Shown here one piece after another: positions 1 through 20,000 of a stretch of 20,000 nucleotides of DNA (positions are counted from its first letter, which is position 1; each line of letters opens with the position of its first letter). A program made the translations under genes and the position numbers. The notes beneath the pieces are model-generated. The model was not told the DNA's origin, ran no database searches, and saw only the letters and a program-made list of their open reading frames with translations. Source of the stretch: Lama guanicoe (Eukaryota); NCBI GenBank assembly GCA_013239625.1, contig MU053094.1, forward strand, positions 51,709 to 71,708. The letters are read 5' to 3'.

Positions 1-3000
1 GGGGATACATAATCCATGCAACTTTATGGGGACACAGATGTTCCCAGGGAGGAAAGTATATTACACACCTCCAAAGCCCATAGAGAGGCACTCGCTGTTA
101 CTTGGATTTAGAGCCCAACCCCCCCCTTCGCTCCCAGCCCGTACTTGGAAAACACTCAGGGAAGTCACCTAAGGGATCCTATTAGATCCAAGTTGATGCT
201 GTCAGTACGAGGTGCCTCCTCACACTCAGGATACCAGAACACTCCTTCATGGGTGTGCTGGAGGTGGAAAAAATGAGTCCACGCATTTTTCAAGGAACTC
301 ATGTATTCCCAGGTTGTGGGTTTTTGGTTAATAACCTCCACTTCCCATGGAGAAGCAGTCGCCAATATTTGCTTTTAGAACCCAACCCCCACTTTCCCCC
401 GCACTCCGTATAAGGGAACTAAACAGGGAAGACAAGTTAAGCGATATTATTAGAACCAAGGACCTGCTGTCTGTTGAAGGAGGCTGGCCACACTCAGGAT
501 AGAAGAACACTTCCTCGTTTGTGTGCAGGAGGTGGGGAAACAGAGTCCAGGCTTCTTTCAGGTGGCACAGTTATTTCCAGGTTGTGGGTTGTAGGTTAAA
601 CATCTTCACTTCCCATGGAGAGGCACACGCTGATACTTGGTTTTAGAACCCAAATCCAACTTTCAACCACACTCTGGCCTACGCAAATCATCAGGGAAGA
701 CAAGGAAAAGGATGGTATTAAAACCAAGTCACTGATGTCGCTTGGAGGAACTACCCCATACTCAGGATTCTGGAACACATCCTTGTGTGGAGGGGTGGTG
801 TGGAGCCCCAAACCACGCAGATGAATGGGAGCTTAGGTGTGTCCATTTCGGGGGAATTCCTCTAAGAACTTCCTCAGTCCATCAGGGGGTATTCGCTGCT
901 TATTGGCTTCCAAGCCCAACCCCCAGTTTTCCATCATGGTCCGGCCTAAGGAAACAATAATGGAACTCAAGCTAAGGGATTCTAATAGAACCCAGGTGCT
1001 TCTGTCATTTGGAGTAGCCTCCCCATGCTCAGGATTCCAGAATACTTCTTCGTGTGTGTGCTGTCGGTGGAGAAACAGAGTCCATGCTTATTTCAGGGTC
1101 ACAGGTATTCCCTTGTTGGGGTTGTTGGTTAAACACTTTCACTTCCCATGGAGAGGCATTCAGTTATACTTGGATTAAGAGCCCAAATCCCACTTTGAAC
1201 CGCACTCCGACTTATGCAATCCATCAACCATGGAAAGGCACTCGCTATTACTTGGCTTTAGAGCCCAACCTCCACCTTCGCTCCCAGCCCATACTTGGAA
1301 AACACTCAGGGAAGTCAACCTAAGGGATCCTGTTAGATCCCAGATGCTGCTGTCAGTTGGAGGTGCCTCCCCACACTCAGGATACAAGAACACTCCTCCA
1401 TGTGTGTGCTGGTGGTAGGCAGAGTCCACACATTTTTCAAGGAGCACAGGTATTCAGAGGTTGTGGGTTTTTGGTAAATAACATCCAGTTCCCTTGGAGA
1501 AGCACTCGCTAATACTTGGTTTTAGAACCCAACCCCCACTTTCCCCCGCACCCATATCAGGCAATCATACGGAAGACAAGTTAAGAGATTTTATTAGAAC
1601 CCAGTCCCTGCTGTCAGTTTGAGGAGGCTGCCCGCTCTCAGGATAACTGTGCAAGTGATCGTGTGTGTGCTGGATGTCTGAAAACAGACTCCACTGATCT
1701 TTGTGGGGTCACAGGTGTTCCAAGGTAAGGGATTTAAACACCTCCACTAACCATAGAGAGGTACTCGCAAATACTTGGTTTTGGAGCCCAAACAACTCTA
1801 TTGCCTGCACTCCAGCCTTTGCATACCATCAGGGAAGACAAGCAAAGGGATTTAATTAGAACCAAGACGCTGCATTCAGTTGGAGGAACTTCCCTACACT
1901 CAGGATTCTGGAACACATTCTTGTGTGTGGGGGAGTTGTGCAGCCCCATTCCACCCAGATCAATGGAGGCAAACATGTTCCCTTTATGGACAAGACCTCT
2001 AAGTAGTTCCTCAATCGATCAGGGGGCACTCACTGCTTCTTTGCCTCCAAGCCCAACCCCCAGATTTCCCTCATATCCCAGACCAGGGAAACACTCGTAT
2101 TACAAGCTGAGGGATTCTATTAGAACCCAGGCACTGCTGTCATTTTGAGAAGCCCTCACACACTAAGGATATCTGAAAGTCTTCGTGTGTAATCTGGAGT
2201 TGGGAAAGACATTCCACGCAAATTTATGGGGGCACAGGTGTTCCAAAAATGGGGATTTGGTTTAAACACCTCCACTGCCCATAGAGGGGCCCTCGCTATT
2301 CCTTGTCTTTAGAGCCCAACCCCCACATTCACTCACAGCCCGGCCTAGGTAAACACTCAAAGAAGTCAAGCTAATGGATTCTGTTATACCCCAGGTGCTC
2401 CTGTCATTTCCAGGAAACTCCCCACCTTCAGGATAGAAGAAAATTCCTCATTTGTGTGCTTGAGTTGGGGAAGCAGGGTCCAGGCATCTTACAGGTCGCA
2501 CATTTATTCCCACGTTGCTGGTTTTAGGTAAAATTTCCCCACTTCCCATGTAGACGCATTGGCTAATACTTGGTATTAGAGCCGAAACCCCACATTCCCC
2601 TGCACTCCAGCCTATGCAAACCATCAGGGAAGGCAAGTTAAGGGATTCATGTAGATCACAAGCACTGCAGTCACTAGGAGGAACTTCCCAACACTCAGGA
2701 CTCAAGAGACACTCTTGTGTGTGGGGATGTGTGCAGCCCCAAATCACGAAGATGAATGGTGATACAAGTGTTCCCCTGTAGGGGAGTTCCCTAAGTACTT
2801 CCTCAGTCAATCGTTTGGCACAAGCTGCTACTTGGTCTCCAAGCCCAACCCCCAGCTTTCGCTAGCAGCCCGGCCTAGGATTACACTTAAGTAATGCAAG
2901 GTGAGTTATTCTATTAGAAAGCAAGCGCTGCTGTCAGTTGGAGGAACTTCCACACACTCAGGATTACGGATCCCAGCCTTGTGTGTGTGGGAGTTGTGGA

Positions 3001-3167
3001 GACCCAGTCCATGCTGTTGAATGGGATCACAGGTGTTCCACTTTAGGTGAAATCCTCTAAGTACTTCCTCAGTAAATCAGGGGGCACTCGTTGCTACTTG
3101 GACTTCAAACCCAACCCCCACTTTCCCCCACTCTCCACCCTAGGCATGCCATCAGGTAAGACAAGCT
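1..3167. repeat. Tandem satellite array, ~265 bp monomer (left segment, ~12 monomers)
   Basis: The anchor motif (aagggattct)ATTAGAACCCAGG(tgctgctgtcagttggagga) recurs at 181, 449, 717, 984, 1332, 1593, 1855, 2119, 2383, 2650 and 2913. Spacing is 261-268 bp except one 348 bp interval. Other motifs recur in every unit: cacactcagga, gtgtgtg, cacaggtgttcc, tacttgg, agcccaacccc. Confidence 0.97.
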
Positions 3168-3722
3168 NNNNNNNNNNNNNNNNNNNNNNNNNNNNNNNNN
3201 NNNNNNNNNNNNNNNNNNNNNNNNNNNNNNNNNNNNNNNNNNNNNNNNNNNNNNNNNNNNNNNNNNNNNNNNNNNNNNNNNNNNNNNNNNNNNNNNNNNN
3301 NNNNNNNNNNNNNNNNNNNNNNNNNNNNNNNNNNNNNNNNNNNNNNNNNNNNNNNNNNNNNNNNNNNNNNNNNNNNNNNNNNNNNNNNNNNNNNNNNNNN
3401 NNNNNNNNNNNNNNNNNNNNNNNNNNNNNNNNNNNNNNNNNNNNNNNNNNNNNNNNNNNNNNNNNNNNNNNNNNNNNNNNNNNNNNNNNNNNNNNNNNNN
3501 NNNNNNNNNNNNNNNNNNNNNNNNNNNNNNNNNNNNNNNNNNNNNNNNNNNNNNNNNNNNNNNNNNNNNNNNNNNNNNNNNNNNNNNNNNNNNNNNNNNN
3601 NNNNNNNNNNNNNNNNNNNNNNNNNNNNNNNNNNNNNNNNNNNNNNNNNNNNNNNNNNNNNNNNNNNNNNNNNNNNNNNNNNNNNNNNNNNNNNNNNNNN
3701 NNNNNNNNNNNNNNNNNNNNNN
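3168..3722. other. Assembly gap (555 N)
   Basis: Run of N characters. Confidence 1.
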
Positions 3723-3727
3723 ACGAG

Positions 3728-3733
3728 TTTATT
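3728..3733 (-). terminator. LTR polyadenylation signal (AATAAA)
   Basis: AATAAA lies 12 nt downstream of TATAAA on the minus strand, the tight TATA-polyA arrangement typical of short-R betaretroviral LTRs. Confidence 0.6.
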
Positions 3734-3745
3734 TCTTGCAGTCAA

Positions 3746-3751
3746 TTTATA
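3746..3751 (-). promoter_or_regulatory. LTR TATA box (TATAAA)
   Basis: The minus strand reads CATATAAATTGACTGCAAGAAATAAACTCGT, about 525 nt from the LTR 5' end, where the end of U3 is expected. Confidence 0.65.
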
Positions 3752-4134
3752 TGATTTTAACCCATTAGCTCATACATTCCTGCCTATAGGCAAAGGTATT
3801 GTTTTCAGGCATGTACTAAAACCATTAACTTGTATATTGTTACAGACATCATTATTGTTTACAGTTCTTGTAAAACTAAGATTAAGAGTTCCTGGAACAA
3901 AGATGATAAGCTAAGACATTGTTCCTCTAGGCTAACATCGTGACTGGTGTATGTTTAGCTCAGGTGATTGTTCTCTAAAAAGATTACTGATTTGTGTGCC
4001 GATTGTATCTCTCCCTCTGAAGGTCCTTTGTGACTTAGTAGCTCAAGGATATTTCCTCAGGCATTAGCGCACCTGGTGCATTCTTTAGTAAAAGGGGTGG
4101 CGGGACAGAGATTGTTCTGACTCAATTGACCTTT

Positions 4135-4253
4135 GAGCCGGGTGCCCCGCACTGTGGGAGTTTAGGCCCAACCTTTGTGCTCGGCAGCCTCAATCTCAGA
4201 GCCTGGCGCCCTGCACTTTGGGGTTTTACGCCCAAGTTTTGTGCTCGGCAGCC
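4135..4253 (-). repeat. Imperfect direct repeat (2 x 55 bp, 64 bp period) in LTR U3, candidate enhancer duplication
   Basis: 4135-4189 gagccgggtgccccgcactgtgggagtttaggcccaacctttgtgctcggcagcc versus 4199-4253 gagcctggcgccctgcactttggggttttacgcccaagttttgtgctcggcagcc: 46 of 55 positions identical. Confidence 0.9.
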
Positions 4254-4277
4254 CTCCGTCACGAGCGGCTCCCCGCA

Positions 4278-7200
4278 CACATGTATTCCCAGGTTGTGGG
4301 TTTTTGGTTAATAACCTCCACATCCCATGGAGAAGCAGTCGCTAATATTTGCTTTTTGAGCCCAACCCCCAATTTCCCCCGCACTCCGTATCAGGCAACC
4401 AAACAGGGAAGTCAAATTAAGCGATTTTATTAGAGCCCAGGCCCTGCTGTCTGTTGGAGGAGGCTGCCCACACTCAGAATAGAAGAACACTTCATCGTTT
4501 GTGTGCTGGAGGTGGGGAAACAGAGTCCAGGCATCTTTCAGGTGGCACTTGTATTCCCACGTTGCTGGTTGTAGGTAAAATTTCTTATATTCACATATAG
4601 ATGCTTTGGCTAATACTTGGTGTTAGAGCCGAAACCCCACATTCCCCTGCACTCGAGCCTAGGCAAACCATCAGGAAAGGCAATTTAAGGGATTCAAGTA
4701 GAACAAAAGCGCTGCTGAAATTTGGAGGAACTTCCCCACACTCAGGATTCCGGAACCCAACATTGTGTGGCAGGGAGATGTGGAGCCACAAACCAAGTAG
4801 TTGAATGGGGTCAAACTTGTTCCCATTGAGGGGGAAGTCTTTTAAATACTTCCACATTCCATCGGGGGGCAGTTGCTGCTATATGGCCTCCAATCCAAAC
4901 TCCCATCTTTCCCTATCAGCCCGGCCTAGGGAAACACTCAAGGAATACAAGCTAAGTGATTCTATTAGAACCCAGGCACTGCTGTCATTTGGAGGAGCCT
5001 CCGCACAATCAGGATACCTGAGCACATCTCCGTGTGTGTGCTGGAGGAGGGGAAACAGTGTCCAAACATCTTTATGGGGGCACAGGTGTTCCAAGGTTGG
5101 GGAAGTAGTTTAAAACCTTCCACTGCCCACAGAGATGCACTCGCAAATACCTGGCTTTACACCCAATCCCCCACTTTCGCTCACTGCAAGGCCTAGGAAA
5201 TCACATACGGAAGTCAAGCTAAGGGAATCTATTAGAACCCAGGTGCTGCTGTCAGTTGGAGGAACCTCCCCACACTCAGAACCCCAGAACATATCTTCGT
5301 TTGTGTACTGGATGTAGGGAAACAGAGTCAAAGCATCTTTCAGTGGGCACAGTTGTTCCATAGTTGTGGGTTGTAGGTTAAACACCCACATCCCATGGAT
5401 AGGCTCTCGCTAATACTTGTTTTAGAGCCCAATTCCAACCTTCCTTTCACACATCAGACATGGCAAGCAATCATGGAAGACAAGTTAAGGTATTATATTA
5501 GAACCCATGTGCTGCTGTTAGTTGGAGGAATCTCCCGACACTCAAGACATCTGAACCCGTTTTTGTGTGTGTGCTGGAAGAGGGAAACAGAGTCCACGCA
5601 TATTTATGGGAGCACAGGTGTTCCCAAGTTGCGGATATACTTCAACCACCTCCACTGCCTAAGGAGAGGAACTCGCTAATACTTGGTTTTAGAGCCCAAA
5701 TCCAACTTTCAACCACACTCTGGCCTACGCAAATCATCAGGGAAGACAAGAAAAGGGATTCTATTAAAACCAAGACTGATGTCACTTTGAGGAACTACTC
5801 CACCCTCAGGATTCTGGAACACAACCTTGTGTTGTGGGGTGGTGTGGAGCCCCAATCCACGCAGATGAATGGGAGCTCAGGTGTGTCCATTTCGGGGGAA
5901 TTCCTCTAAGAATTTCCTCTGTCCATCAGGGGGTACTCGCTGCTTCTTGGACTCCAAGCCCAACCCCCAGGTTTCCCTCATGGTCTGGCCTAAGGAAACA
6001 ATAATGGAACACAAGCTAATGGATTCTAATAGAACCCAGGTGTTTCTGTCATTTGGAGTAGCCTCCCCATGCTCAGGATACCAGAATACTTCTTCGTGTG
6101 TGTGCTGTTGGTGGAGAAACAGAGTCCACGCTTATTTCAGTGTCACAGGTATTCCCTTGTTGGCTTTGTTGGTTAAACACTTCCACTTCCCATGGAGAGG
6201 CATTCAGTTATACTTGGATTAAGAGACCAAATCCCACTTTCAACCACACTTCGGCTTATGCAATCCATCAGGGAATGAAGCTTAAGAATTCTACTAGAAC
6301 ATTGGCACTGATGTCAGTTGGAAGAACTTTCCACTCTCAGGATTCTGGAAGCCAGACTTGTGGAGGGGTGATTTGTGTAACCCCACTCCACGCAGCTGGA
6401 TGTGGGCACAGGTGTTCCCCTATAGGGAGAATTCATCTAAATACTTCCTCAGTCCATCGGGGGGCACTCGCTACTTTTTGCCCCAAAGCCCAACCCTCAT
6501 CTTTCCCTCAGAGCCAGGGCTAGGGAAACACTCAGGGATTACAAGCTAAGGGATTCTATTAGTACCCAAGCACTGCTGTCAGTTGAAAGTGCTGGCCCAC
6601 ACTCAGGATACCTGAACACGTCTTTGTGTGTCTGTTGGATGTGGGGAAACTGAGTCCATGCATCTTTATATGGGCACAGTTATTCCCAGGTAAATGATGT
6701 AGTTTAAACACCTTCACTGCCCATAGATAGGCATTGGCTATTACTTGGCTTTAGAGCCCAACCCAGATATTCGCTCAACCCGGCCTTAGGAAAACACTCA
6801 AGTAAGTCAAGCTAAGGAATTCTATTAGATCCCTAGTGCTGCTGTTAGTTGGAGGAGCCTCCCCACTCTCAGGAAACCAGAACACGTCTTCATAATTGTG
6901 CTGGCAGTGTCGAAACAGAGTCCACGCAATTTTATTGAGGCATAGGTATTTCTTGGATGGAGGATGTTGGTTAAACTCCTCCACATCCCATTGATAGGCA
7001 ATCGCTAATACTTCATTTTAGAGCCCAACCTCCAATTTCCCCCGCACTCCTGGCAGGTCATGCCATCACAGAATACAAGCTAAGGGATTATATCGAACCC
7101 AGGTGCTGTGTCACTTGAGGAACTTCACAAATCTCAGGACTCCAGAGACTCTCTTGTGTGTGGGGGAGGTGTGCAGTCCCAATCCACGCAGATGAATGGT

Positions 7201-10200
7201 GACACAAGTGTTCCCCTGTAGGGGAGTTCCCTAAGTACTTCCTCAGTCAATCGGTTGGCACAAGCTGCTACTTGGCCTCCAAGCCCAAACCCCAGCTTTC
7301 GCATGCAGCCTAGCCTAGGGTTACACTTAAGTAATGCAAGGTGAGATATTCTATTACAATGCAGGCACTGCTGTCAGTTGGAGGAACTTCCATACACTCA
7401 GGATTACCGATCCCTGCCTTGTGTGTGGGGGAGTTGTGGAGGCCAAGTCCACGCAGGTAAATGGGGGCACAGGTGTTCCAATTTAGTGTGAAATCCTCTA
7501 AGTACTTCTTCAGTAAATCGGGGGGCACTCGTTGCTACTTGGACTTCAAGGCCAACCCGCAATTTCCCCCACACTCCACCCTAGGCATGCCATCAGGGAA
7601 GACATGCTAAGGGATACAATAAGAACCCTGGCGCTGCTGTCATTTGGAGGAGACTCCCCACACTCAGGATACCTGTGCAAGTCTTTGTGTGTGTGCTGGT
7701 GTTGGGGATACATATTCCACGCAACTTTATGGGGGCATAGATTTTCCCAGGGAGGGAAATTATTTTACTTTCCTCCACAGCCCATTGAGAGGCACTCGCT
7801 ATTACTTGGCTTAGAGCCCAACCCCCCACTTCGTTCCCAGCCCGTTCTTGGAAAACACTCAGGGAAGTCACCTAAGGGATCCTATTAGATCCCAGTTGAT
7901 GCTGTCAGTTGGAGGTGCCTCCTCACACTCAGGATACAAGAACACTCCTTCATTTGTGTGCTGGAGGTGGGGAAAATGAGTCCATTCATTTTTCAAAGAA
8001 CTCATGTATTCCCAGGTTGTGGGTTTTTGGTTCATAACCTCCACTTCCCATGGAGAAGCAGTCATAAATATTTGCTTTTAGAGCCCAAACCCCACTTTCC
8101 CCCACACTCCGTATCAGGGAACCAAACAGGGAAGACAAGTTAAGTGATTTTATTAGAACCCAGGCACTGCTGACATTTGAAGGAGCCTCCACACTATCAG
8201 GATACCTGAGCACGTCTCCGTGTGTGTGCTGGAGGTGGGGAAACAGAGTCCTCTCATCTTTATGGGGGCACAGGTGTTCCAAGGTTGGGGAAGTTGTTTA
8301 AAACCTTCCACTGCCCACAGTGACGCACTCGCAAATACCTGGCTTTACACCGCATCCCCCACCTTCTCTCACTGCTAGGCCTAGGAAATCACATATGGAA
8401 GTCAAGCTAAGGGATTCTATTTGAACTCAAGTGCAGATGTCAGTTGGAGGAGACTCCCCACACTCAGGAAACCTGAACAAGTCTTTGTGTGTGTGCTGTT
8501 GTTGGGGATACATAGTCCACTTTTCTTTATGGGGGCACAGGTGTTCCCAAGAATGGAATGTACTTTTAACAACTCCACTACCCTTAGAGAGGCTCTCTCT
8601 ATTACTTGGCTTTAGAGCCCAACCCCACTTTCGCTCCCAGCCCATACATGGAAAGCATTCAGGGAAGTCAACCTAAGGGATCCTATTAGATCCAAGTTGC
8701 TGCTTTCAGTTGGAGTTGCCTCCCCACACTCAGGATGCCAGAACACTTCATCGTGTGTGTGCTGGAGGTGGGAAACAGAGTCCATGCATTTTCATGGAGC
8801 ACAGATATTCCCAGGTTGTTGGTTTTTGGTTCATAACCTCCACTTCCCATGGAGAAGCACTCACTAATGCTAGGTTTTAGAGCCCAACCCCCACCTTCCC
8901 CCGCACTCTGTATCAGGCAACCAAACAGGGAAGGCTCGTTAAGTGATTTTATTAGAACCCAGGTGCTGCTGTTAGTTAGATGAACCTCCCCACACTCAAA
9001 ACATCTGAACGCAATGTCGTGTGTGTCCTGGAGGAGGGAAACAGAGTCCACAAATATTTATGGGGGCACAGGTGTTCCCATGTTGGAGATATACATTAAC
9101 CACATCCACTGCCAAAAGATAGGAACTCACGAATACATGGTTTCAGAGCACAACCCCCAAGTTCGCTCATACCAGGCCAAGGAATATACACAGGGAATTA
9201 AACCTAATATATCCAAATAGATCCCAGGCGCTACTGTCAGTTGCAGGAGCCTCCCCACACTCAGGATACCAGAAAACTTCATGTGTGTGCTGGAGTTGGG
9301 GAAACAAAGCACACGCAATTTTCAGGGGGCACAGTTATTCCCAGGTTGTGGGTTGTAGGTTAAACATCTCCAATTCCCATGGAGAGGCACAAGCTGATAC
9401 TTGGTTTTAGAGCACATATCCCACTTTCAAACACACTCTGGCTTAGGCAAACCATCAGGGAAGACAAGCAAAGGGATTCTATTAAAACCAAGACCCTGAT
9501 ATCACTTGGAGGAACTACCCCACCCTCAGTATTCTCGAACTCAAACTTGTGTGGTGGGGAGGTGTGGAGCCCCACTCCACACAGATGAATGTGTGCTCAG
9601 GTGTTTCCCTTTAGGGAGAATTCCACTAAGAACTTCCTCAGTCTATTGGGGGGTACTCGCTGCTACTTGGCCTCCATGCCCAACCCCCAGCTTTCTCTCA
9701 TGGCCTGGCCTAAGGAAACACTCAGGGAAGAAAAGCTAAGGGATTCTAATAGAACCCAGTTGCTGCTGTCATTTGGAGTAGCCACACCATGCTCAGGATT
9801 CCTGAGAAATTTTTCCTCTGTGTGCTGTTTGTGGAGAAATTGTCCACGCATATTTCAGGGGTCACAGGTATTCCCTTGTTTGGGGTTGTTGGTTAAACAC
9901 TTCCACATTCCATGGAAAGGCTCTCAATAATACTGGGATTTAGAGCCCAAATCCCACTTTGATCCGCACTCCGGCTTATGCAATCCATCAGGGAAGAGAA
10001 GCTTAAGGATTCTTCTAGATCTCTGGCTCTGCTGTCAGTTGGAGGAACTTTCCCACTCTCAGAATACCGGAAGCCAGGCTGATGGGGGTGGGATTTGTGT
10101 ATCCCCACTCCACGAAGTTGGATGTAGGCACAGGTGTTTCCCTTTAGGGAGAATTCATCTATATACTTCCTCAGGCCATCGGGGGGCACTCGCTACTATT

Positions 10201-13200
10201 TGGCCTCAAAGACCAACCCCCACCTTTCCCTCAGAGCCAGGCCTAGGGAAACACTCACGGATTACAAGCTAAGGGATTCTGTTAGAACCCAGGCACTACT
10301 GTCATTTTGAGGAGCCCCCCCACACTAAGGATATCTGAAATTCTTCTTGTGTGTTCTGGAGCTGGGAAAGACATTCCACGCACCTTTATGGGGGCACAGG
10401 TGTTCCAAAGTTGGGGATTTGGTTTAAAAACCTCCACTGCCCATAGAGGGTCACTCGCTAATGCTTGTCTTTAGAGCACAACCCCCACATTCGCTCACAG
10501 CCCGGCCTAGGTAAACACACAAGGAAGTCAAGCTAGCAGATTCTAATAGACCCCAGGTGCTGCTGTCATTTGGAGGAAACTCCCCACATTCAGAATAGAA
10601 GAACACACCCTCGTTTGTGTGCTGGAGGTGGGGAAACAGAGTCCAGGCATCTAAGATGTGGCACATGTATTCTCAAGTTGTTAGATATAGGGAAAATTTC
10701 TCAACATTCCATGAAGATGCAATTTTTTTACTTGGTATTAGAGCAGAACTCCCACATTCCCCTGCACTCCAGCCTAGGCAAACCATCAGGGAAGGCAAGT
10801 TAAGGGATTCAAGTAGAACACAAGCGCTGCTGAGAGTTGGAGGATCTTCCCCACACTCAGGATTCCGGAACCCAACCTTGTGTGGCGGGGAGATTTGTAG
10901 CCACGATCCAAGTAGAAGAATGGGGTCACAAATGTTCCGCATTAGGGAGAAGTCTTCTAAATACTTCCACATTCCATTGGGGGGGGCATTTGCTGCTACT
11001 TGCCTACCAAGCCAAACTTCCAGTTTTCCCTCAAATCCCGGAGTAGGGAAACACTCAAGAAATACAAGCTAAGGGATTCTAATAGAACCCAGGCGCTGCT
11101 GTCATTTTGAGGAGCCTCCCCACAATCAGGATATTTGAGCACGTCTCCGTGTATGTGCTGGTGGTAGGGAAACAGAATCCACGCATCTTTATAGGGGCAA
11201 AGGTGTTCCAAGTAAGGGGAAGTAGTTTAAAACCCTCAACTGCCCACAGAGATGCACTAGCTAAGACTTGGCTTTAGAGCCCATCCCCCACCATCCCTAC
11301 TGCTAGGCCTAGGAAAACACTTAGGTAAGTCAAGCTAAGGGATTCTATTAGAACCCAGGTGCTGCTGTCAGTTGGATTAACCTCCCCACACTCAGAACAA
11401 CAGAACAATTCTTCATGTGTGTGCTGGATGTAGGGAAACAGAGTCAAAGCATCTTTCAGGGGACATAGTTATTCCATGGTTGTGAGTTGTAGGTTAAACA
11501 CCCACATCCCATGGATAGGCTCCCGCTAATACTTGATTTAGAGCCCAATCCCAACTTTCCCCCACACACCCGCCATGTCAAGCCATCATGGAAGACAAGT
11601 TAAGGTATTGTATTAGAACCCAGGCGCTGCTGTTAGTTGGAGGAACCTCCCCAATCTCAAGACATCTGAACCCGATGTCGTCTGTGTGCTGGAGGAGGGA
11701 AACAGAGTCCACGCATATTTAAGGGTGCATAGGTGTTCCCAGGTTGCGAATATACTTTAACCACCTCAAATGCCAAAGGATAGGAACTCGCTAATACTTG
11801 GTATTAGAGCACAACCTACAAATTCGCTCACAACCCGGCCAAGGAAAATACTCAGGGAAATCAACCTAATGGATCCAAATAGATCCCAGGTGTTACTGTC
11901 AGTTGCAGGAGCCTCCCCACATTCAGGATACCAGAAAACTTCATCTGTGTGCTGGAGGTGGGGAAACAAAGCACACCCAATTTTCTTGGGGCACAGTAAT
12001 TCCCAGGTTGTAAGTTGTAGGTTAAACATCTCCAATTCCCATGGAGAGGCACAAGCTGATACTTGGTTTTAGAGCCCAAATCCCACATTCAACCACACTC
12101 TGGCCTAGGAAAACCATCAGGGAAGACAAGCAAAGGGATTCTATTCAAACCAAGACGCTGATGTCAGTTGGAGGAACTACCCCACCCTCAGGATACTGGA
12201 ACCCAACCTTGTGTGGTGGGGAGGAGGTGTGGAGCCCCACTCCACACAGATGAATGTGTGCTCAGGTGTTTCCCTTTAGGGAGAATTCCACTAAGAACTT
12301 CCTCAGTCTATTGGGGGGTACTCGCTGCTACTTGGCCTCCATGCCCAACCCCCAGCTTTCTCTCATGGCCTGGCCTGAGGAAACACTCAGGGAAGAAAAG
12401 CTAAGGGATTCTAATAGAACCCAGGTGCTGCTGTCATTTGGAGTAGCCACACCATGCTCAGGATTCCTGAGAAATTTTTCCTCTGTGTGCTGTTTGTGGA
12501 GAAATTGTCCACGCATATTTCAGGGGTCACAGGTATTCCCTTGTTTGGGGTTGTTCGTTAAACACTTCCGCATTCCATGGAAAGGCTCTCAATAATACTG
12601 GGATTTAGAGCCCAAATCCAACTCTGAACAGCACTCCAGCTTATGCAATCCATCAGGGAAGAGAAGCTTAAGGATTCTTCTAGATCTCTGGCTCTGCTGT
12701 CAGATGGAGGAACTTTCCTACTCTCAGGATTCCGGAAGCCAGACTTGTGGGGGCGGGGATGTGTGTATCCCCACTCCACGTAGTTCTATGTGGGCACAGG
12801 TGTTCCCCTTTAGGGAGAATTCAACTACATACATCCTCAGTCCATTGGGGGGGACCTCGCTACTATTTAACCTCAAAGCCCAAGCCCCACCTTTCCCTCA
12901 GAGCCACGCCTAGGGAAACAGGGAATCCAAGCTAAAGATTCTATTCGAACCCAGGCTCTGCTGTCACTTGAAAGTTCCGGTCCACACTCAGGATACCTGA
13001 ACACGTCTTCGTTTGTGTGTTGGATGGGAAAACAGAGTCCATGCATGTTTATGGGGGCACAGTTTTTCCCAGGTAGATGATGTAGTTTAAACACCTTCAC
13101 TGCCCATATAGAGGCACTGGCTTTTACTTGGATTTAGAGCCCAACCCCCACTTTCGCTCAAACCTCGGCCTAGGAGAACACTCAAGTAAGTCAAGCTAAG

Positions 13201-16200
13201 GAATTCTATTAGATCCCTGGTGCTGCTGTAAGTTGGAAGAGCCTCCCCACATTCAGGAAACCAGAACATTTCTTTGCACGTGTGCTGTTGATCTGGAAAC
13301 CGAGTCCACGCATTTTTCTTTGGGCAGAGTTATTCCTAGGTTGGAGGATATAGGTTTAACTCCTCCACATCCCATGGATAGGCACTTGCTAATACTTCAT
13401 TTTAGAGCCAAACCTCCAAATTCCCCCACACTCCTGGCAGTGTAAGCCATCAGGGAAGACAAGCTTAGGGATTGTATTGAATACAGGTGCTGATTTCACT
13501 TGGAGGATCTTCCCAACACTTAGGACTCCGGAGGCACTGTTGTGTTTGGGGGTGGTGTTCCCCCCGAATCCACGCAGATGAATGGTGACACAGGTGTTCC
13601 CCGGTAGGGGAGTTCCCTAAGTACTTCCTCAGTCAATCCGTTGGCACAAGCTGCTACTTTGCATCCAAGCCCAACCCCAGCTTTTGCTCACAGCCCGGCC
13701 TAGGGAAACACTCAGGGAATACAAGCTGATTTATTCTATTAGAACTCAGGTGCTGCTGTCAGTTGGAGGAAATTCCACACATTCAGGAATCCAGATCACA
13801 GCCTTGTGTGTGTGGGAGTTTTGTAGACCCATTCCACGCAGATGAATGGGGACACAGGTGTTCCAATTTATGGTAAAATCCTCTAAGTATTTTCTCAGTA
13901 AATTGGGGGGCACTCGTTGCTACTTGGACTTCAAGCCCAACCCCCACTTTCCCCCACACTCCAGCCTAGGCATGCCAACGGGGAAGACAAGCTAAGGGAT
14001 TCTATTATAACCCAGGTGCCGCTGTCAGTTTTAGGAGACACCCCACACTCAGGATACCTGTACAAGTCTTTGTGTGTGTGCTGGTGTTGAGGATACATAG
14101 TCGAACCAACTTTATGGGGGCACAGGTGTTCCCAGGGTAAGAATGTACTTTAAACACCTCCACTGCTCATAGAGAGGCAATCGCTATTACTTGGCTTTAG
14201 AGACCAACCCCACCTTCGTTCCCAGCTCGTCCTTGGAAAACACTCATGGAAGTCAACCTAAGGAATCCTATTAGATACCAGATGCTGCTGTCAGTTGGAG
14301 GGGCCTCCCCACACTCAGGATACCAGAAAACTTCTTCATGTGTGTGCTGGGGGTGGGGAACCTGAGTCCATGCATTTTTCAAGAAGCACTGGTATTCCCA
14401 TGTTGTGGTTTTTTGGTTAAAACCTCCACTTCCCATGGAGAAGCACTCGCTAATACTTGGTTTAGAGCCCAACCCCCACCTTCGCTCAAAACCCGGCCTA
14501 GGAGAACACTCAAGTAATTCAAGCTAAGTAATACTATTAGATCCCTGTTGCTGCTGTTATTTGGAGGATCCTCCCCACACTCAGGAAACCAGAAGATTTC
14601 TTTGCACGTGTGCTGGAGGTATGGAAACAGAGTCCACGCATTTTACTTGGGGCACAGGTATTCCTAGGTTGGAGAATGTAGGTTAAACACATCCACATCC
14701 CATGGATAGGCACTCGCTAATTGTTTGTTTTAGAGCCCAACATCCAATTTCCCCCGCACTCCAGGTAGGGCAAGCCATCAGGGAAGACAAGTTATGGGAT
14801 TGTATAGAACCCATGTGCTGCTGTCACATGGAGTATCTTCCCAACACTCAGGACTCCAGAGACACTCTTGTGTGTGGGGGAGGTCTGCAGCCCCTATCCC
14901 CTTAGATGAATGGTGACACAGGTGTTCCATTTTAGGGGGGTTTCCTAAGAATATGCTCAGTCAATTGGTTGGCAAAAGTTCATACTTGGCCTCCAAGCCC
15001 AAACCCCAGGTTTTGCTCATAGCCTGGCCTAGGGAAACACTCAGGGAATACATGCTGAGTTATTGTATTAGAACGCAGGCGCTGCTGTCATTTGGAGGAA
15101 CTTCCACACACTCAGGATTCCGGATCTCAACCTTGTGTGTGGGGGATGTGTGGAGACCCATTCCATGCAGGTGAGTGGGGGCACAGGTGATTCATTTTAG
15201 GGTGAAAACCTCTAAGTACTTCCTCAGTAAATCAGGGGCACTCAATGCTACTTGGACTTCAAGACCAACCCTCATTTCCCCCACATTCCATCCTAGGCAT
15301 GCAATCAGGTAAGACAAGCTCAGGGATTCTATTTGAACTCAGGTGCTGCTGTCAGTTGAAGGAAACTCCCCACACTCAGGATACCTGAACAAGTCTTTGT
15401 GTGTGTGCTGGTGTTGGGTATACATAGTCCACGTAACTTTGTTTCAGCACAGGTGTTCCCAAGGAGGGAATGTACTTTAAACTCCTCCACTGATCTTAGA
15501 GAGGCACTCGCTTTTAATTGGCTTTAGAGCCCAAACCCCATCTTCGCGCACAGCCCGTCCATGGAACACACTCAGGGAAGTCAAACTAAGGGATACTATT
15601 AGATCCCAGATGCTGCTGTCTGTTGGAGGTGCCTCCCCACACTCAGGATACCAGAGCACTTCTTCATGTGTGTGCTGGTGGGGGGGAGAAGAGTCCACGC
15701 ATTTTTCAATGAGCACAGGTATTCCCAGGTTGTGGGTTATTGGTTAATACCCTTCACTTCCTATGGAGAAGCACTCCCTAAAACTTGCTTTTAGAGCCCA
15801 ACCCCCACTTTGCCCCGCACTCCGTATCAGGCAACCAAATGGGGAAGACATGTTAAGCGATTTTATTAGAACCCAGGCCCTGCTGTCAGTTTGAGGAGGC
15901 TGCCAACTCTCAGGATAACTGTGCAAGTGTTCGTGTGTGTGCTGGAGGTCTGGAAACTGACTCCACGGATCTTTATGGGGGCACAGGTGTTCCCAGGTTA
16001 GGGATGAAGTTTAAACACCTCGACTAACCATACAGAGGTACTCACAAAGTCTTGGTTTCAGAGCCCAAAACACACTTTCCCCTGCACTCCCGCCTAGGTA
16101 TACCATCAGGGAAGACAAGCAAATGGATTCAATTAAAGCCCTGGCGCTGCTGACACATGGAGGAACTTCCCTGCACTCAGGATTCTGGAACTCATTCTTG

Positions 16201-18584
16201 TGTGTGGGTGAGTTGTGCAGCCCCATTACACCCAGATGAATGGGGGCAAATGTGTTCCCTTTAGGGAGAAGTCCTCTATGTATTTCCTCAAACGATCATG
16301 GGGCACTCACTGCTATTTGAACTCCAAGCCCAACCCCCAGATTTCCTTCATATTCTGGACCAGGGAAACACTTATATTACGAGCTGAGTCATTTTATTAA
16401 AACCCAGACACTGCTGTCAATTTGAGGAGCCCCCCTACACTAAGGATATTTGAAAGCCTTTGTGTGTGTTCTGGAGCTGGAAAAGATATTCCACGCATCT
16501 TTATGGGGGCACAGGTGTTCCGAAATTGGGGATTTAGTTTAAACAACCCCTCTGCCCATAGAGGGGCACTCGTTAATCCTTGTCTTTAGAGCCCAACCCC
16601 CACATTGGCTCACAGCCCGGCCTAGGAAAACACTCACGGAAGTCAAGCTAACGGATACTCTTAGACATCAGGTGCTGTTGTCAGTTCGGGGAACCTCCAC
16701 ACACTCAGAACACCAGAACCCTTCTTCATGTGTGTGCTGGATGTACAGAAACAGAGTCAAAGCATCTTTCAGGGGGCACAGTTATTCCATGTTTGTGAGT
16801 TGTAGGTTAAACACCCATATCCCATCAAAAGGCTCTCGCTAATACATGGTTTAGGGCCCAGTCCCAAGGTTCTGCCGCACACTGGACTTGGCAAGCCATC
16901 ATGGAAGACAACTTAGGGTATTGTATTAGAACCCAGGTGCTCCTGATAGTTGGAGGAACCTCCCAACACTCAAGACATCTGAACCCAATGTCATGTGTGT
17001 GCTGGAGGAGGGAAACAGAGTACACGAATTTTTATGGGGGCACAGGTGTTCCCAGGTTGGTGATATAATTTAACCACCTCCACTGACAAAAGATAGGAAC
17101 TCGCTAATACTTGGTTTTAGAGCACAACCACCAACTTTGCTCAACCTGGCCAAAGGAAATAGTCAGGGAAGTCAACCTAATGGATCCAATTAGATACCAG
17201 GTGCTAACATAAGTTGCAGGAGCCTCACCACACTCAGGATATCAGAATACATCTTCGTGTGTGTGCTGGGTGTGGGAAAATATAACTAAGCATCTTTTAA
17301 GAGGCACAGGTATTTCCAAGTTGTGGATAGCTGATTAAATACCTCCACATCCCATGGGGAGGCACTCGATATTACTTGGTTTTAGAGGCTAAACCCCACT
17401 ATCCTCCGCACTCCGGCATATGCAATTCATCAGGGAAGACAAATTTAGGGATTCTATTAGAACCCAGGCGCTGCTGTCCGTTGGAGAAACTTCCCCACCC
17501 TCAGGATATCAGAACCCCGCCTTGGGAGGGGGAATGTGTGGAGCCCCACTCAACGCATATAAACGGGGGCAAAGGTGTTCCCAGTTCGGGTGATGTCCTC
17601 TAAGTACTTCCTCATTCCATCGGGGAGCACTCGATGCTACTTGGCCACCAAGCCCAAACCCCAGCTTTCCCTCACAGCCCGACTTAGGAAACACTCAGGG
17701 AATACAAGCTAAGGGACACTATTAGAACCCAGGCGCTCCTGTCTGTTGGAGGAGCCTCCCCACACTCAGGATACCTGAACACATATTAGTTTCTGTGCTG
17801 GAGGTGTGGAAAAAGTGTCCAAGTATCTTTAACAGGGCACAGGTGTTCCCAGTTTGTGTGTGTACTTTAAATATCTCCACTGCCCATAGAGAGGCACTCG
17901 CTAATACTTGGACTTAGAGCCCAACCCCAAATGCGCTATCACCGCCGACTAGGAAAACACACAGGGAAAGCAACCTAAGAGATACAATTTGATCCCTGGT
18001 CCTGGTGTCAATTGGAGGAGACTCAACATAATCAGGACACCAGAACTCTTCTTCGTGTGTGTACAAAAGGCTGGGAAACAGATCCCATGCATTTTGAAGG
18101 GGATACAGGTATTCCCAGGATGAGTGTTGATGAGTGTTGTAAACACCTCCAATTCCCATGGAGAGGCTCTAGCTAGTACTTGGATTTAGAGTAGAGCCCA
18201 CACTTTTCCCCGCACTCCAGTCTAGGCAAGCTATCAGGGAAGAAAAGCTAAGAAATCCTTTTAAAACACAGGCACAGCTGTCATTTGGAGGAATTTCCCC
18301 ATACTCAGGATTCTGGAATCCCGCCTTGTGTGTGGGGGTGTGGAGCAAGAGTCCACGCCCATGAATGGAGGCACAGGTGTTCCCCGATTGGGAGAAGTCC
18401 ACCAAGTACTTAATCAGTCCTGCGGGGGGCACTAGCTGCTACTTGGCCTCCAAGCCCAACCCCCAGGTTTCCCTTGCAGACCCGCCTAAAGAAACACTCA
18501 GGGAATACAGGCTAAAGGATTCTATAAAAACCCAGGCCCTGCTCTCATTTGCAGGAGACTCCCGAATTTATGACACTTGAACAC
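4278..18584. repeat. Tandem satellite array, ~265 bp monomer with degenerate higher-order structure (~54 monomers)
   Basis: The same anchor motif recurs every ~263-270 bp (e.g. 5231, 5497, 5763, 8951, 9481, 10281, 11612, 12143, 13208, 14270, 14536, 15598, 17456, 17721). All monomers are in the same orientation and diagnostic variants recur in fixed order. Confidence 0.97.
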
Positions 18585-19068
18585 NNNNNNNNNNNNNNNN
18601 NNNNNNNNNNNNNNNNNNNNNNNNNNNNNNNNNNNNNNNNNNNNNNNNNNNNNNNNNNNNNNNNNNNNNNNNNNNNNNNNNNNNNNNNNNNNNNNNNNNN
18701 NNNNNNNNNNNNNNNNNNNNNNNNNNNNNNNNNNNNNNNNNNNNNNNNNNNNNNNNNNNNNNNNNNNNNNNNNNNNNNNNNNNNNNNNNNNNNNNNNNNN
18801 NNNNNNNNNNNNNNNNNNNNNNNNNNNNNNNNNNNNNNNNNNNNNNNNNNNNNNNNNNNNNNNNNNNNNNNNNNNNNNNNNNNNNNNNNNNNNNNNNNNN
18901 NNNNNNNNNNNNNNNNNNNNNNNNNNNNNNNNNNNNNNNNNNNNNNNNNNNNNNNNNNNNNNNNNNNNNNNNNNNNNNNNNNNNNNNNNNNNNNNNNNNN
19001 NNNNNNNNNNNNNNNNNNNNNNNNNNNNNNNNNNNNNNNNNNNNNNNNNNNNNNNNNNNNNNNNNNNN
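18585..19068. other. Assembly gap (484 N)
   Basis: Run of N characters. The flanking anchors (~18523 and ~19066) are about two monomers apart, so the gap is consistent with satellite only. Confidence 1.
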
Positions 19069-20000
19069 GAACCCAGGTGCTGCTGTGATTTGGAGTAGCC
19101 TCCCCATGATCAGGAATCCAGAAAACTTCTTCGTGTGTGTGCTGTTGGTGGAGTAACAGTCCAAGCGTATTTCAGGGGGCACAGATATTCCCTTGTTGGG
19201 GGTTGTTGGTTAAACACCTCCACTTCTCTTGGAGAGGCACTCACTAATACTTGGATTTAGAGCACAAATCCCAAATTGAACCGCACTCCGGCTTATGTAA
19301 TCCATCAGGGAATTGAAGGTTAAGGATTCTCCTGGAACACTGGCACTGCTGTCCGTTGGAGAAACTTCCCCACCCTCAGGATATCAGAACCCCGCCTTGT
19401 GAGGGGGAATGTGTGGAGCCCCACTCAACGCATATAAACGGGGGCAAAGGTGTTCCCAGTTCGGGTGATGTCCTCTAAGTACTTCCTCATCCTATCAGGG
19501 AGTACTCGATGCTACTTGGCCACCAAGCCCAAACCCCAGCTTTCCCTCAGAGCCAGTCCTAGGGAAACACTCAGGGATTACAAGCTAAGGGATTCTTTTA
19601 GAACCCAGGTGGTGCTGTCATTTGAAAGTGCCGGCCCACACTCAGGATACCTGAGATCGTCTCCTTGTTTGTTGGAAGATGGGAAACATTGTCCATGCAT
19701 CTTTATGGGGTCACAGTTTTTCCCAGGTAGATGATGTAGTTTAAACACCTTCACTGCCCATACAAAGGCACTGGCTATTTTTGGCTATAGAGACAAACCC
19801 CAGTTTCACTCAAAACCCTGGCTAGGAGTAGACTCAAGTAAGTAAATCTAGGGAATTCTATTAGATCCAAGGTGCTGCTGTTAGTTGGAGGATCCTCCCC
19901 ACACTCAGAAAATCAGAACACTTCACACATGTCCTGGAGGTGTGGAAACAGAGTCCACGCAATTTTCTTGGGGCACAGTTATTCCTAGGTTGGAGGATGT
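19069..20000. repeat. Tandem satellite array, ~265 bp monomer (right segment, ~3.5 monomers, runs off the window)
   Basis: Anchors at about 19066, 19331, 19597 and 19860 with the same conserved motifs. Confidence 0.96.

Follow-up and report, generated by a model that had tools for sequence, protein, structure and literature searches.

A probable old and decayed piece of an 18-monomer higher-order repeat in a 266-bp camelid satellite

The window analysed here, a stretch of 20,000 nucleotides, is a satellite array (1..20000, + strand) built of ~266-bp monomers in a single orientation throughout. TRF gave a period of 266 with 52.8 copies, and an nhmmer search found 72 monomer matches, all on the + strand. 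The window forms the final 20 kb of a 64.5-kb array (C92:7185-71708); on the whole of contig C92 nhmmer found 241 monomer matches, again all on the + strand. The GC content of the monomer is 0.48. Sub-repeats inside one monomer were limited to 10-nt chance pairs, and an Rfam search of 10261-15100 (E up to 1) returned two chance-level matches (E 0.39 and 0.83), far under gathering scores, which does not point to an RNA or SINE origin for the monomer. Non-satellite DNA adjoins arrays of this family on C92 and on a second contig, C8031. Open frames in these flanks (C92:1-7300 and C8031:33000-40000) were only short ones or ones crossing N, and supplied no gene for placement; the contigs are unplaced.

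The family is abundant. The assembly contains 807 copies of a 16-nt motif from the conserved part of the monomer and 4 of the reversed control, and thousands of read-derived contigs from four sequencing runs align to 10281-16660 at at least 90% identity. Since all four runs consist of contigs, depth over this interval is not copy number. Each sequencing run listed as a match shares a small part of the sampled words (0.14-0.24; 5 organisms, 7 studies), and no RNA run is among those listed. The assembly is fragmented into 55,231 contigs, with many satellite contigs shorter than 3 kb; homogeneous arrays are therefore perhaps collapsed or missing, which biases the view towards diverged copies.

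Table 1. Arrangement of monomer types (letters) and interruptions in the window
Feature	Position	Strand	Remarks
A E F G H, second cycle closure in the window	1312..2629	+	
Non-satellite insert of ~1.1 kb within the array	3168..4280	.	3168-3722 is N
Earlier cycle copy H K L M N C O P Q R I S T A, U missing	4409..8131	+	82-89% identical to 10525-14515
N U C O P, lag-10 duplicate of 11592-12923	8931..10260	+	84, 92, 95, 97 and 87% identity
Longest uninterrupted part of the cycle, G H K L M N U C O P Q R I S T A (16 types)	10261..14515	+	Run ends at C92:65958
R I S T A, old 5-monomer duplicate of 13188-14515, lag 5	14516..15844	+	81-86% identity
T A E F G, joins run end (A) to start (G) via E and F; one of two such sites in the window	15311..16639	+	
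V W X Y Z, exit from the 18-type cycle after M N	17169..18503	+	
N stretch	18585..19068	.	Flanking monomer registers 541 bp apart, ~two monomer lengths

Monomers fall into discrete types. From the window, 66 full monomers were kept (6 of the 72 matches were partial or contained N), and average linkage at a distance of 0.2 resolved these into 26 clusters, with an identity of 0.846 within clusters (71 pairs, range 0.79-0.97) and 0.635 between them (2,074 pairs, 95th percentile 0.74). A larger set from five contigs (C92, C8031, C3485, C3486 and C4799) comprised 498 full monomers out of 528 matches, the remaining 30 having fewer than 230 model positions or containing N; at a distance of 0.22 this set gave 25 clusters with at least five members. 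Eighteen types of the window match 18 of these clusters one-to-one (16-37 members per cluster), and among the 498 monomers identity is about 0.85 within types and 0.66 between them. An earlier, sequence-only reading of the window had proposed about 18 groups of monomers, more alike within than between groups; this is confirmed, each of its 18 labels corresponding to one cluster. Five rarer types, V, W, X, Y and Z, stand outside the 18-type cycle.

The 18 types follow one another in the cyclic order G-H-K-L-M-N-U-C-O-P-Q-R-I-S-T-A-E-F, which spans ~4.8 kb. This order is obeyed by 306 of the 354 adjacent pairs on the five contigs in which both monomers belong to the 18 types (306 of 482 if all adjacent pairs are counted). 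By comparison, 2,000 shuffles of the labels gave a mean of 19.8 canonical pairs and a maximum of 38, so that the claim of a fixed, non-random recurrence of types stands. The window alone contributes 47 canonical pairs out of 56. Outside it, 259 of 298 pairs are canonical, and for 18/18 types the predicted successor is also the commonest. Four further contigs, with monomers assigned to the type whose consensus was nearest, add 25 canonical pairs out of 27. The order is interrupted at 48/354 junctions, about every 6-7 monomers, by deletions and duplications of whole monomer numbers. These counts come from a handful of contigs, some of which are not independent: C3485 and C3486 have a common N-V-W-X-Y block, 98-100% identical and in opposite orientation, and the monomers of C4089 and C4409 are identical. 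Some junctions could be assembly errors.

Closure of the cycle is seen in unbroken runs of 24 monomers on C3486, 23 and 20 on C8031 and 19 on C92, the last finishing at the window monomer at 161. The full unit is reiterated head to tail on these three contigs; inside the window no run exceeds 16. There, none of the 48 pairs at lag 18 is 80% identical or more, and no type recurs at that lag. High-identity pairs lie instead at lags 5, 10, 23, 24 and 29, and the 14-mer lag spectrum has peaks at 2660, 6380, 7700, 6100, 1320, 5040 and 1860, with none at 4780. Hence, the ~4.8-kb cycle of 18 monomers proposed from the window holds for order and closure (runs of 19-24), but its 4.8-kb period is never realised there; piecing the closure together from overlapping stretches gave the right answer, which is directly demonstrated only outside the window.

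The register used here lies ~20 nt to the left of that of the sequence-only reading, whose labels translate as G=h, H=i, K=l, L=m, M=n, N=o, U=p, C=d, O=e, P=q, Q=r, R=s, I=j, S=k, T=a, A=b, E=f and F=g. Its uninterrupted h-i-l-m-n-o-p-d-e-q-r-s-j-k-a-b at 10281-14460 is indeed a row of 16 different types, and its a-b-f-g-h at 15331-16660 and b-f-g-h-i at 1332-2650 were recovered as the two closures in Table 1. The window also contains duplicated blocks. Pairs of the lag-5 duplicate are 0.86 (13188/14516), 0.82 (13456/14784), 0.84 (13718/15047), 0.85 (13984/15311) and 0.81 (14250/15578) identical. Up to the missing U, the earlier cycle copy matches its counterpart at lag 23; beyond it, the lag is 24. 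No duplication in the window is younger than the lag-10 duplicate, which produces the strongest k-mer lag (2660). M N V W X Y Z also occurs in that order on C3485, and C3486 carries N V W X Y. Within the insert, 3723-4280 is AT-rich at first and then holds two similar ~60-nt GC-rich repeats, satellite restarting mid-monomer at 4281.

Copies of the 18-mer are widely diverged. Same-type identity is 0.846 within contigs (1,202 pairs) and 0.852 between contigs (2,979 pairs), against a between-type identity of 0.664 in the five-contig set, where pairs at lag 18 are 0.853 identical (17 pairs). By substitutions only, same-type identity is 0.864, placing copies ~14% apart, and a single copy is 0.926 identical to its own type consensus (~7% away). 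The CpG observed/expected ratio is 0.25. In active higher-order repeat (HOR) arrays, units are typically 95% or more identical; the 18-mer units are 0.85-0.86 alike, against 0.66 among the monomers of one unit, and stay far under 95%. On a short contig, C2842 (T A E F G H K), identity to the type consensuses of the 18-mer is 96-99%. A young, homogeneous 18-mer may therefore also exist.

An older layer is visible beneath the types. At a distance of 0.30, three clusters take in 495 of the 498 monomers. These are the classes delta (G L N Q T E), alpha (H M U O R A) and beta (K C P I S F), with six types in each. Type consensuses are 80-88% identical within a class and 62-80% between classes, and in a tree the beta clade has a support of 1.000, the alpha/delta split being weaker. 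Round the cycle the classes run delta-alpha-beta, delta-alpha, delta-alpha-beta, alpha-beta, delta-alpha-beta, beta, delta-alpha, delta-beta. Because this order is irregular, a simple trimer origin of the 18-mer was dropped.

A shorter unit is built from seven of the 18 types. This 7-mer, C A E F M L U (1.86 kb), is found on short contigs; on C4409 the order is C A E F M L U C A E F, and 1,864 bp separate the two copies of C. Monomers C, E and L of the 7-mer are 94-100% identical between units and contigs, and in the tree each 7-mer monomer groups with its own 18-mer type (support 0.995-1.000). The 7-mer is the more homogeneous form today, and probably also the more abundant.

We consider it probable that the window preserves, in decayed form, part of an old 18-monomer (~4.8 kb) HOR of a 266-bp camelid satellite. 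Its fixed cyclic order and tandemly reiterated unit would also be expected of a stretch of active, homogenising centromeric HOR array working like human alpha satellite, a reading that fits both the abundance of the family (807 motif matches and thousands of read-derived contigs at at least 90%) and the near-consensus 18-mer monomers of C2842 (96-99%). Such activity is nevertheless unlikely, given units that differ by ~14% and are as diverged inside an array as across arrays, order breaks at 48/354 junctions, a 1.1-kb foreign insert in the window, arrays on C92 and C8031 that pass into non-satellite DNA, and the absence of the CENP-B box core from the window.

The irregular lags in the window, with none at 18, together with the low identity between copies, could alternatively reflect no real HOR at all, but a diverged monomeric array copied a few times as large segmental duplications that mimic a cycle. 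This is very unlikely: four runs of 19-24 monomers, spread over three contigs, show the unit following itself from F to G and onward, the 18-step successor table holds outside the window for all 18 types, and 25/27 pairs on four further contigs are canonical. That the type order, or its breaks, could be artefacts of short-read repeat assembly is suggested by the fragmentation of the assembly, with its many satellite contigs below 3 kb, and by the many alternative joints that read-derived contigs from other runs show on 10281-16660. Yet a divergence of ~14% leaves most words unique, so copies can be assembled, the order is repeated on separate contigs, and a 397-nt contig from another run equals 13200-13596 with zero differences. 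We find an artefactual origin scarcely credible.

On the preferred reading of a decayed 18-mer, a short ancestral set with three monomer classes would have diversified into the 18-mer. The latter would have been amplified and carried to several loci by unequal exchange, perhaps tens of millions of years ago, an age that divergence suggests only roughly. Homogenisation would then have ceased in these arrays and drift followed, in keeping with the CpG ratio of 0.25, while the arrays took up at least one insertion and out-of-register recombination reshuffled their monomers. The 7-mer would have arisen later from its seven types. Most likely, the window has no sequence-specific function beyond that of heterochromatic satellite DNA flanking younger arrays.

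The 7-mer agrees in length with an alpaca satellite, VpaSat16-1836, which has a 1,863-bp period (Supplementary Table S3 of Mendoza-Cerna et al. 2026, Chromosome Res 34:33, PMC13751797). In the available part of that article, motifs of 1.8-3.7 kb are called 'monomer', a 266-bp unit and an 18-monomer unit are not mentioned, the term 'higher-order' has 0 occurrences, and no primers, PCR or FISH are given for VpaSat14, VpaSat15 or VpaSat16. Compared by eye and with no alignment, the first 400 letters of the VpaSat16 consensus resemble the 266-bp monomer; a 28-nt string from it is exact at window 3110-3137 and has 1-3 mismatches in three more monomers. The period of 1,863 bp corresponds to 7 x 266, and that of VpaSat15-3718 (3,718 bp) to 14 x 266. 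The former is met by the 7-mer of C4409 and not by the window. VpaSat14-1864 and VpaSat15-3718 are probably related to the 266-bp satellite, the likeness being one of period length and a short reverse-strand resemblance only. VpaSat08/09/11/12 (5.3 kb, ~20 x 266 bp) were rejected as relatives, as the starts of their consensuses are unlike the monomer by eye. The suggestion that the satellite was undescribed is right only in part: by eye, its monomer is recognisable in the VpaSat16-1836 consensus, but the 266-bp unit and its HOR go unmentioned in the part of the article available. That article aside, our search of the literature on camelid satellites and HORs found no 266-bp camelid monomer or HOR.

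Independent contigs bear out an 18-step order that was first read by eye in 20 kb of sequence, and the family shows in addition an older layer of three classes and a younger derivative, the 7-mer. The 18 type consensuses offer a monomer-level key to the alpaca motifs of 1.9-3.7 kb, left unexplained in the available part of the only systematic alpaca study, and the types offer specific FISH targets and an annotation aid for future complete assemblies. More tentatively, and as less likely than not, we entertain a nested camelid HOR system with a 266-bp monomer, in which three ancient classes gave rise to the 18-mer before the two-tribe split and the 18-mer in turn to the 7-mer (1.86 kb), homogenised today, which may mark (peri)centromeres and to which VpaSat14/16 would correspond. 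If true, the successive layers of centromere-satellite evolution would be legible, for a mammal outside the primates, within a single family. HOR order alone is no demonstration of centromere function, and the analysis gave no pointer to the sex chromosome proposed from the window as another possible location.

The candidate centromere repeat of the llama is 248 bp long with 45% GC, and its higher-order structure is entered as 'not found' in the table of Melters et al. (2013, Genome Biol 14:R10, PMC4053949). As far as the available part of that source goes, it resembles the 266-bp satellite in being a camelid tandem repeat and in its approximate size and GC content, but its length differs, as by eye does its sequence, and the 266-bp family is therefore not the most abundant llama repeat of that study. 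The monomer had been described from the window as GC-balanced and unrelated to alpha satellite, which agrees with its 266 bp, its 48% GC and the 0 matches to the CENP-B box core in the window.

Multimonomer HORs are best known from primate centromeres, where they are formed by alpha satellite; to our knowledge, long and well-ordered HORs outside primate alpha satellite are still sparsely documented. Alpha satellite has an AT-rich monomer of ~171 bp, with a CENP-B box in some monomers, whereas the camelid monomer is 266 bp with 48% GC. The proposed likeness to alpha-satellite HORs holds for the higher-order arrangement, in which the 18 types keep one cyclic order here and on other contigs; it fails for an active array, given the ~14% divergence, the identities of 0.846 within and 0.852 between contigs, and the breaks at 48/354 junctions. 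In primates, divergent ('dead') HOR layers flank active alpha-satellite arrays. These layers share with the camelid array a fixed type order, lost homogenisation, inserted mobile elements and, elsewhere, related monomers in an array that is younger and more homogeneous. They differ in their monomer, which is 171 bp in alpha satellite and an unrelated 266 bp in the camelid array, with no CENP-B box core in the window.

A single-monomer query gave 72 matches in the window, all on the + strand, and 66 full monomers were cut and aligned after six partial or N-containing matches were left out. Pairwise identity among these monomers averages 0.64, and each has a few partners at 0.82–0.97 identity. 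Average linkage at a distance of 0.2 resolves them into 26 clusters, with identities of 0.846 within clusters (71 pairs) versus 0.635 between them (2,074 pairs; 95th percentile 0.74). With monomer types denoted by capital letters (V–Z being rarer types), successive monomers in the window are A U C O A E F G H I S [insert] H K L M N C O P Q R I S T A L T A N U C O P G H K L M N U C O P Q R I S T A R I S T A E F G M N V W X Y Z [run of N] W Q. The sequence-only reading had proposed an 18-monomer higher-order repeat from three ordered stretches, and the clustered monomers confirm types and order in all three (see table). A 4.8-kb periodicity is absent within the window, where none of 48 pairs lying 18 monomers apart (lag 18) reaches 80% identity, so the cycle there is pieced together from overlapping stretches. 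Pairs at least 80% identical occur at lags 5 (5/56), 10 (5/51), 23 (6/43), 24 (8/42) and 29 (6/37), and the top 14-mer lags are 2660, 6380, 7700, 6100, 1320, 5040 and 1860.

Features of the satellite array, in window coordinates
Feature	Position	Strand	Remark
Ordered stretch of 16 types, G to A	10261–14515		Exact match to the first stretch of the sequence-only reading
Ordered stretch T A E F G	15311–16639		Exact match to the second stretch of that reading
Ordered stretch A E F G H	1312–2629		Exact match to the third stretch of that reading
Satellite-covered stretches	2–3147, 4281–18585, 19067–19993	+	Single-monomer search
Runs of N	3168–3722, 18585–19068		
Non-satellite DNA in the array	3723–4280		Readable

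The cycle was evaluated on a larger sample from the same assembly, comprising the window and the rest of its contig (C92), 40 kb of contig C8031 and the complete contigs C3485, C3486 and C4799, from which 498 full monomers were retained out of 528 matches. These form 25 clusters of at least five members at distances of 0.18–0.22, and the 18 window types correspond one-to-one to 18 of them, with 16–37 members apiece. The 18 labels proposed earlier thus resolve into 18 clusters, same-type identity (0.846 within contigs, 1,202 pairs, and 0.852 between contigs, 2,979 pairs) exceeding that between types (0.664). Both members belong to the 18 types in 354 of the 482 adjacent pairs, and 306 of these (86%) are canonical, that is, they follow the cycle G-H-K-L-M-N-U-C-O-P-Q-R-I-S-T-A-E-F; shuffling the labels 2,000 times gave a mean of 19.8 canonical pairs and a maximum of 38. 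Beyond the window, canonical pairs number 259 of 298, and the commonest successor is the predicted type for all 18 types. The cycle closes in continuous runs of 24 monomers (C3486), 23 and 20 (C8031) and 19 (C92), the last finishing at the window's first full monomer. On four further contigs (C2842, C1791, C3823 and C3109), where each monomer was given the type of its closest consensus, 25 of the 27 pairs are canonical. The 18-step cycle of the earlier reading is therefore correct and well beyond chance. C3485 and C3486 have monomers in common at 98–100% identity, and over the block N V W X Y (C3485:4913–6245, C3486:27113–28444), which runs in opposite orientations on the two contigs, the range is 96–100%. 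Probably a single locus was assembled twice or is represented by two haplotypes, so that not every contig in the sample is independent.

Within the window, Tandem Repeats Finder places a 266-bp period over 4278–18311 (52.8 copies, 64% matches), and GC content per kb is 0.46–0.50 (N bins left out). The window (C92:51709–71708) is the terminal part of the 71.7-kb C92, whose array starts at C92:7185 and continues to the end of the contig (241 matches, all on the + strand); the assembly totals 2.05 Gb in 55,231 contigs. An insert of ~1.1 kb of non-satellite DNA (3168–4280) interrupts the array in the window. Its first half is N and its readable half terminates in two similar ~60-nt GC-rich repeats (about 4131–4250); it may be a mobile element.

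At a distance of 0.30, three clusters contain 495 of the 498 monomers, and the 18 types divide evenly among them, six per class: delta (G, L, N, Q, T, E), alpha (H, M, U, O, R, A) and beta (K, C, P, I, S, F). Identity between type consensuses is 80–88% inside a class versus 62–80% across classes. In a FastTree phylogeny of these consensuses the beta clade is fully supported and the alpha/delta split is weaker. Since the order of classes along the cycle is irregular, a clean trimer origin of the 18-mer is not established and was not adopted. All three classes share a first ~60 columns (columns 1–66, for example window 11061–11126) that are far more conserved than the rest of the monomer across the 498 copies, the best 18-column windows averaging 0.87–0.89 conservation. 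This segment is a speculative candidate for a protein-binding box.

Additional monomer types (lower-case a–n) make ordered blocks of their own, for example a tandem pair of k a g f c b n l. These types border non-satellite DNA at array edges on C92 (about 7.2–27 kb) and C8031 (before 33.2 kb), and on C1791 they sit between two 18-type stretches. The proximal third of the C92 array (7185 to about 27,400) consists of types a–n plus L in a separate order, and the 18-type cycle begins there only after ~76 monomers. The same monomer also forms an 11-kb array (42 copies) at C3109:25,552–36,694, inside a 163-kb contig. This array is mostly unclassifiable, with nearest-type identity averaging 0.80, and is the most decayed form among the arrays examined.

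The 18-mer copies show no sign of continuing local homogenisation, since same-type identity is alike within and between contigs and lag-18 pairs are only 0.853 identical (17 pairs). On substitutions alone, copies of one type are 0.864 identical; each copy is 0.926 identical to its own type consensus, and CpG observed/expected is 0.25. From this ~7% divergence to consensus and typical mammalian rates, we infer that amplification, though undated, took place tens of millions of years ago. The order is broken in 48 of the 354 pairs, recurrently at S-A (three times) and at G-M, E-K, M-A, K-O, I-N and L-Q (twice each), which fits variant units having themselves been copied, as C92 shows with A E F G H K L M / A E F G H K. 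Hence, of the alpha-satellite-like organization suggested from the sequence, the higher-order repeat stands and the active array does not: the stretch in the window is an old, rearranged copy population in which homogenisation has ceased.

On short contigs, seven of the 18 types also make up a unit of seven monomers, C A E F M L U. The order on C4409 (662–3926) is C A E F M L U C A E F, with the C copies spaced 1,864 bp apart and both the C pair and the E pair 100% identical; C2280 and C4089 have the same order, and C4089 and C4409 have identical monomers in common. Across the three contigs C, E and L are 94–100% identical, and A, F, M and U range from 84% to 100%. All seven monomers pair with their own 18-mer type (FastTree support 0.995–1.000), and C3485 contains a lag-7 pair at 99.3–99.6%. 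On C2842 (4054–6098), T A E F G H K are 96–99% identical to the 18-mer type consensuses, compared with 0.90–0.94 on the long contigs. A less diverged 18-mer population may exist, largely unassembled or lying in runs of N.

A 16-nt motif taken from the monomer's conserved part has 807 matches in the assembly at no more than one mismatch, versus 4 for the reversed control. Twenty public sequencing runs (five organisms, seven studies) contain 14–24% of the sampled words of window segment 10281–16660. In four runs, between 988 and 23,693 read-derived contigs match this segment at 90% likeness or more, and one 397-nt read-derived contig equals 13200–13596 with zero differences. Summed word depth, which is not copy number, is uneven along the segment over a several hundred-fold range. 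Bins with the greatest depth tend to fall on the 7-mer types L, M, U, C, A, E and F, and those with the least on Q, R and I, which is no more than a hint consistent with the 7-mer being the abundant form.

A 2026 alpaca study (PMC13751797), the sole systematic camelid satellite study found in our literature search, states that no comprehensive one preceded it. The search returned nothing further on the 266-bp satellite; a Dfam or Repbase entry may exist. The accessible part of PMC13751797 mentions neither a 266-bp unit nor higher-order repeats, and three entries of its Supplementary Table S3, VpaSat16-1836 (1,863 bp), VpaSat14-1864 and VpaSat15-3718, are putative satellites for which no primers, PCR or FISH are given. 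By eye, the first 400 letters of the VpaSat16 consensus resemble our monomer, and they contain a 28-nt string identical to window 3110–3137. The listed lengths of VpaSat16 (1,863 bp) and VpaSat15 (3,718 bp) equal seven and fourteen monomers, respectively, and the 1,864-bp 7-mer of the short contigs has the period listed for VpaSat14/16. The llama repeat reported by Melters et al. 2013 (PMC4053949), as far as that source is accessible, is 248 bp long with higher-order structure 'not found', and its sequence differs by eye from the 266-bp monomer. The 266-bp satellite array has a higher-order repeat architecture, and its description at the level of types is of practical value for annotating camelid satellites.
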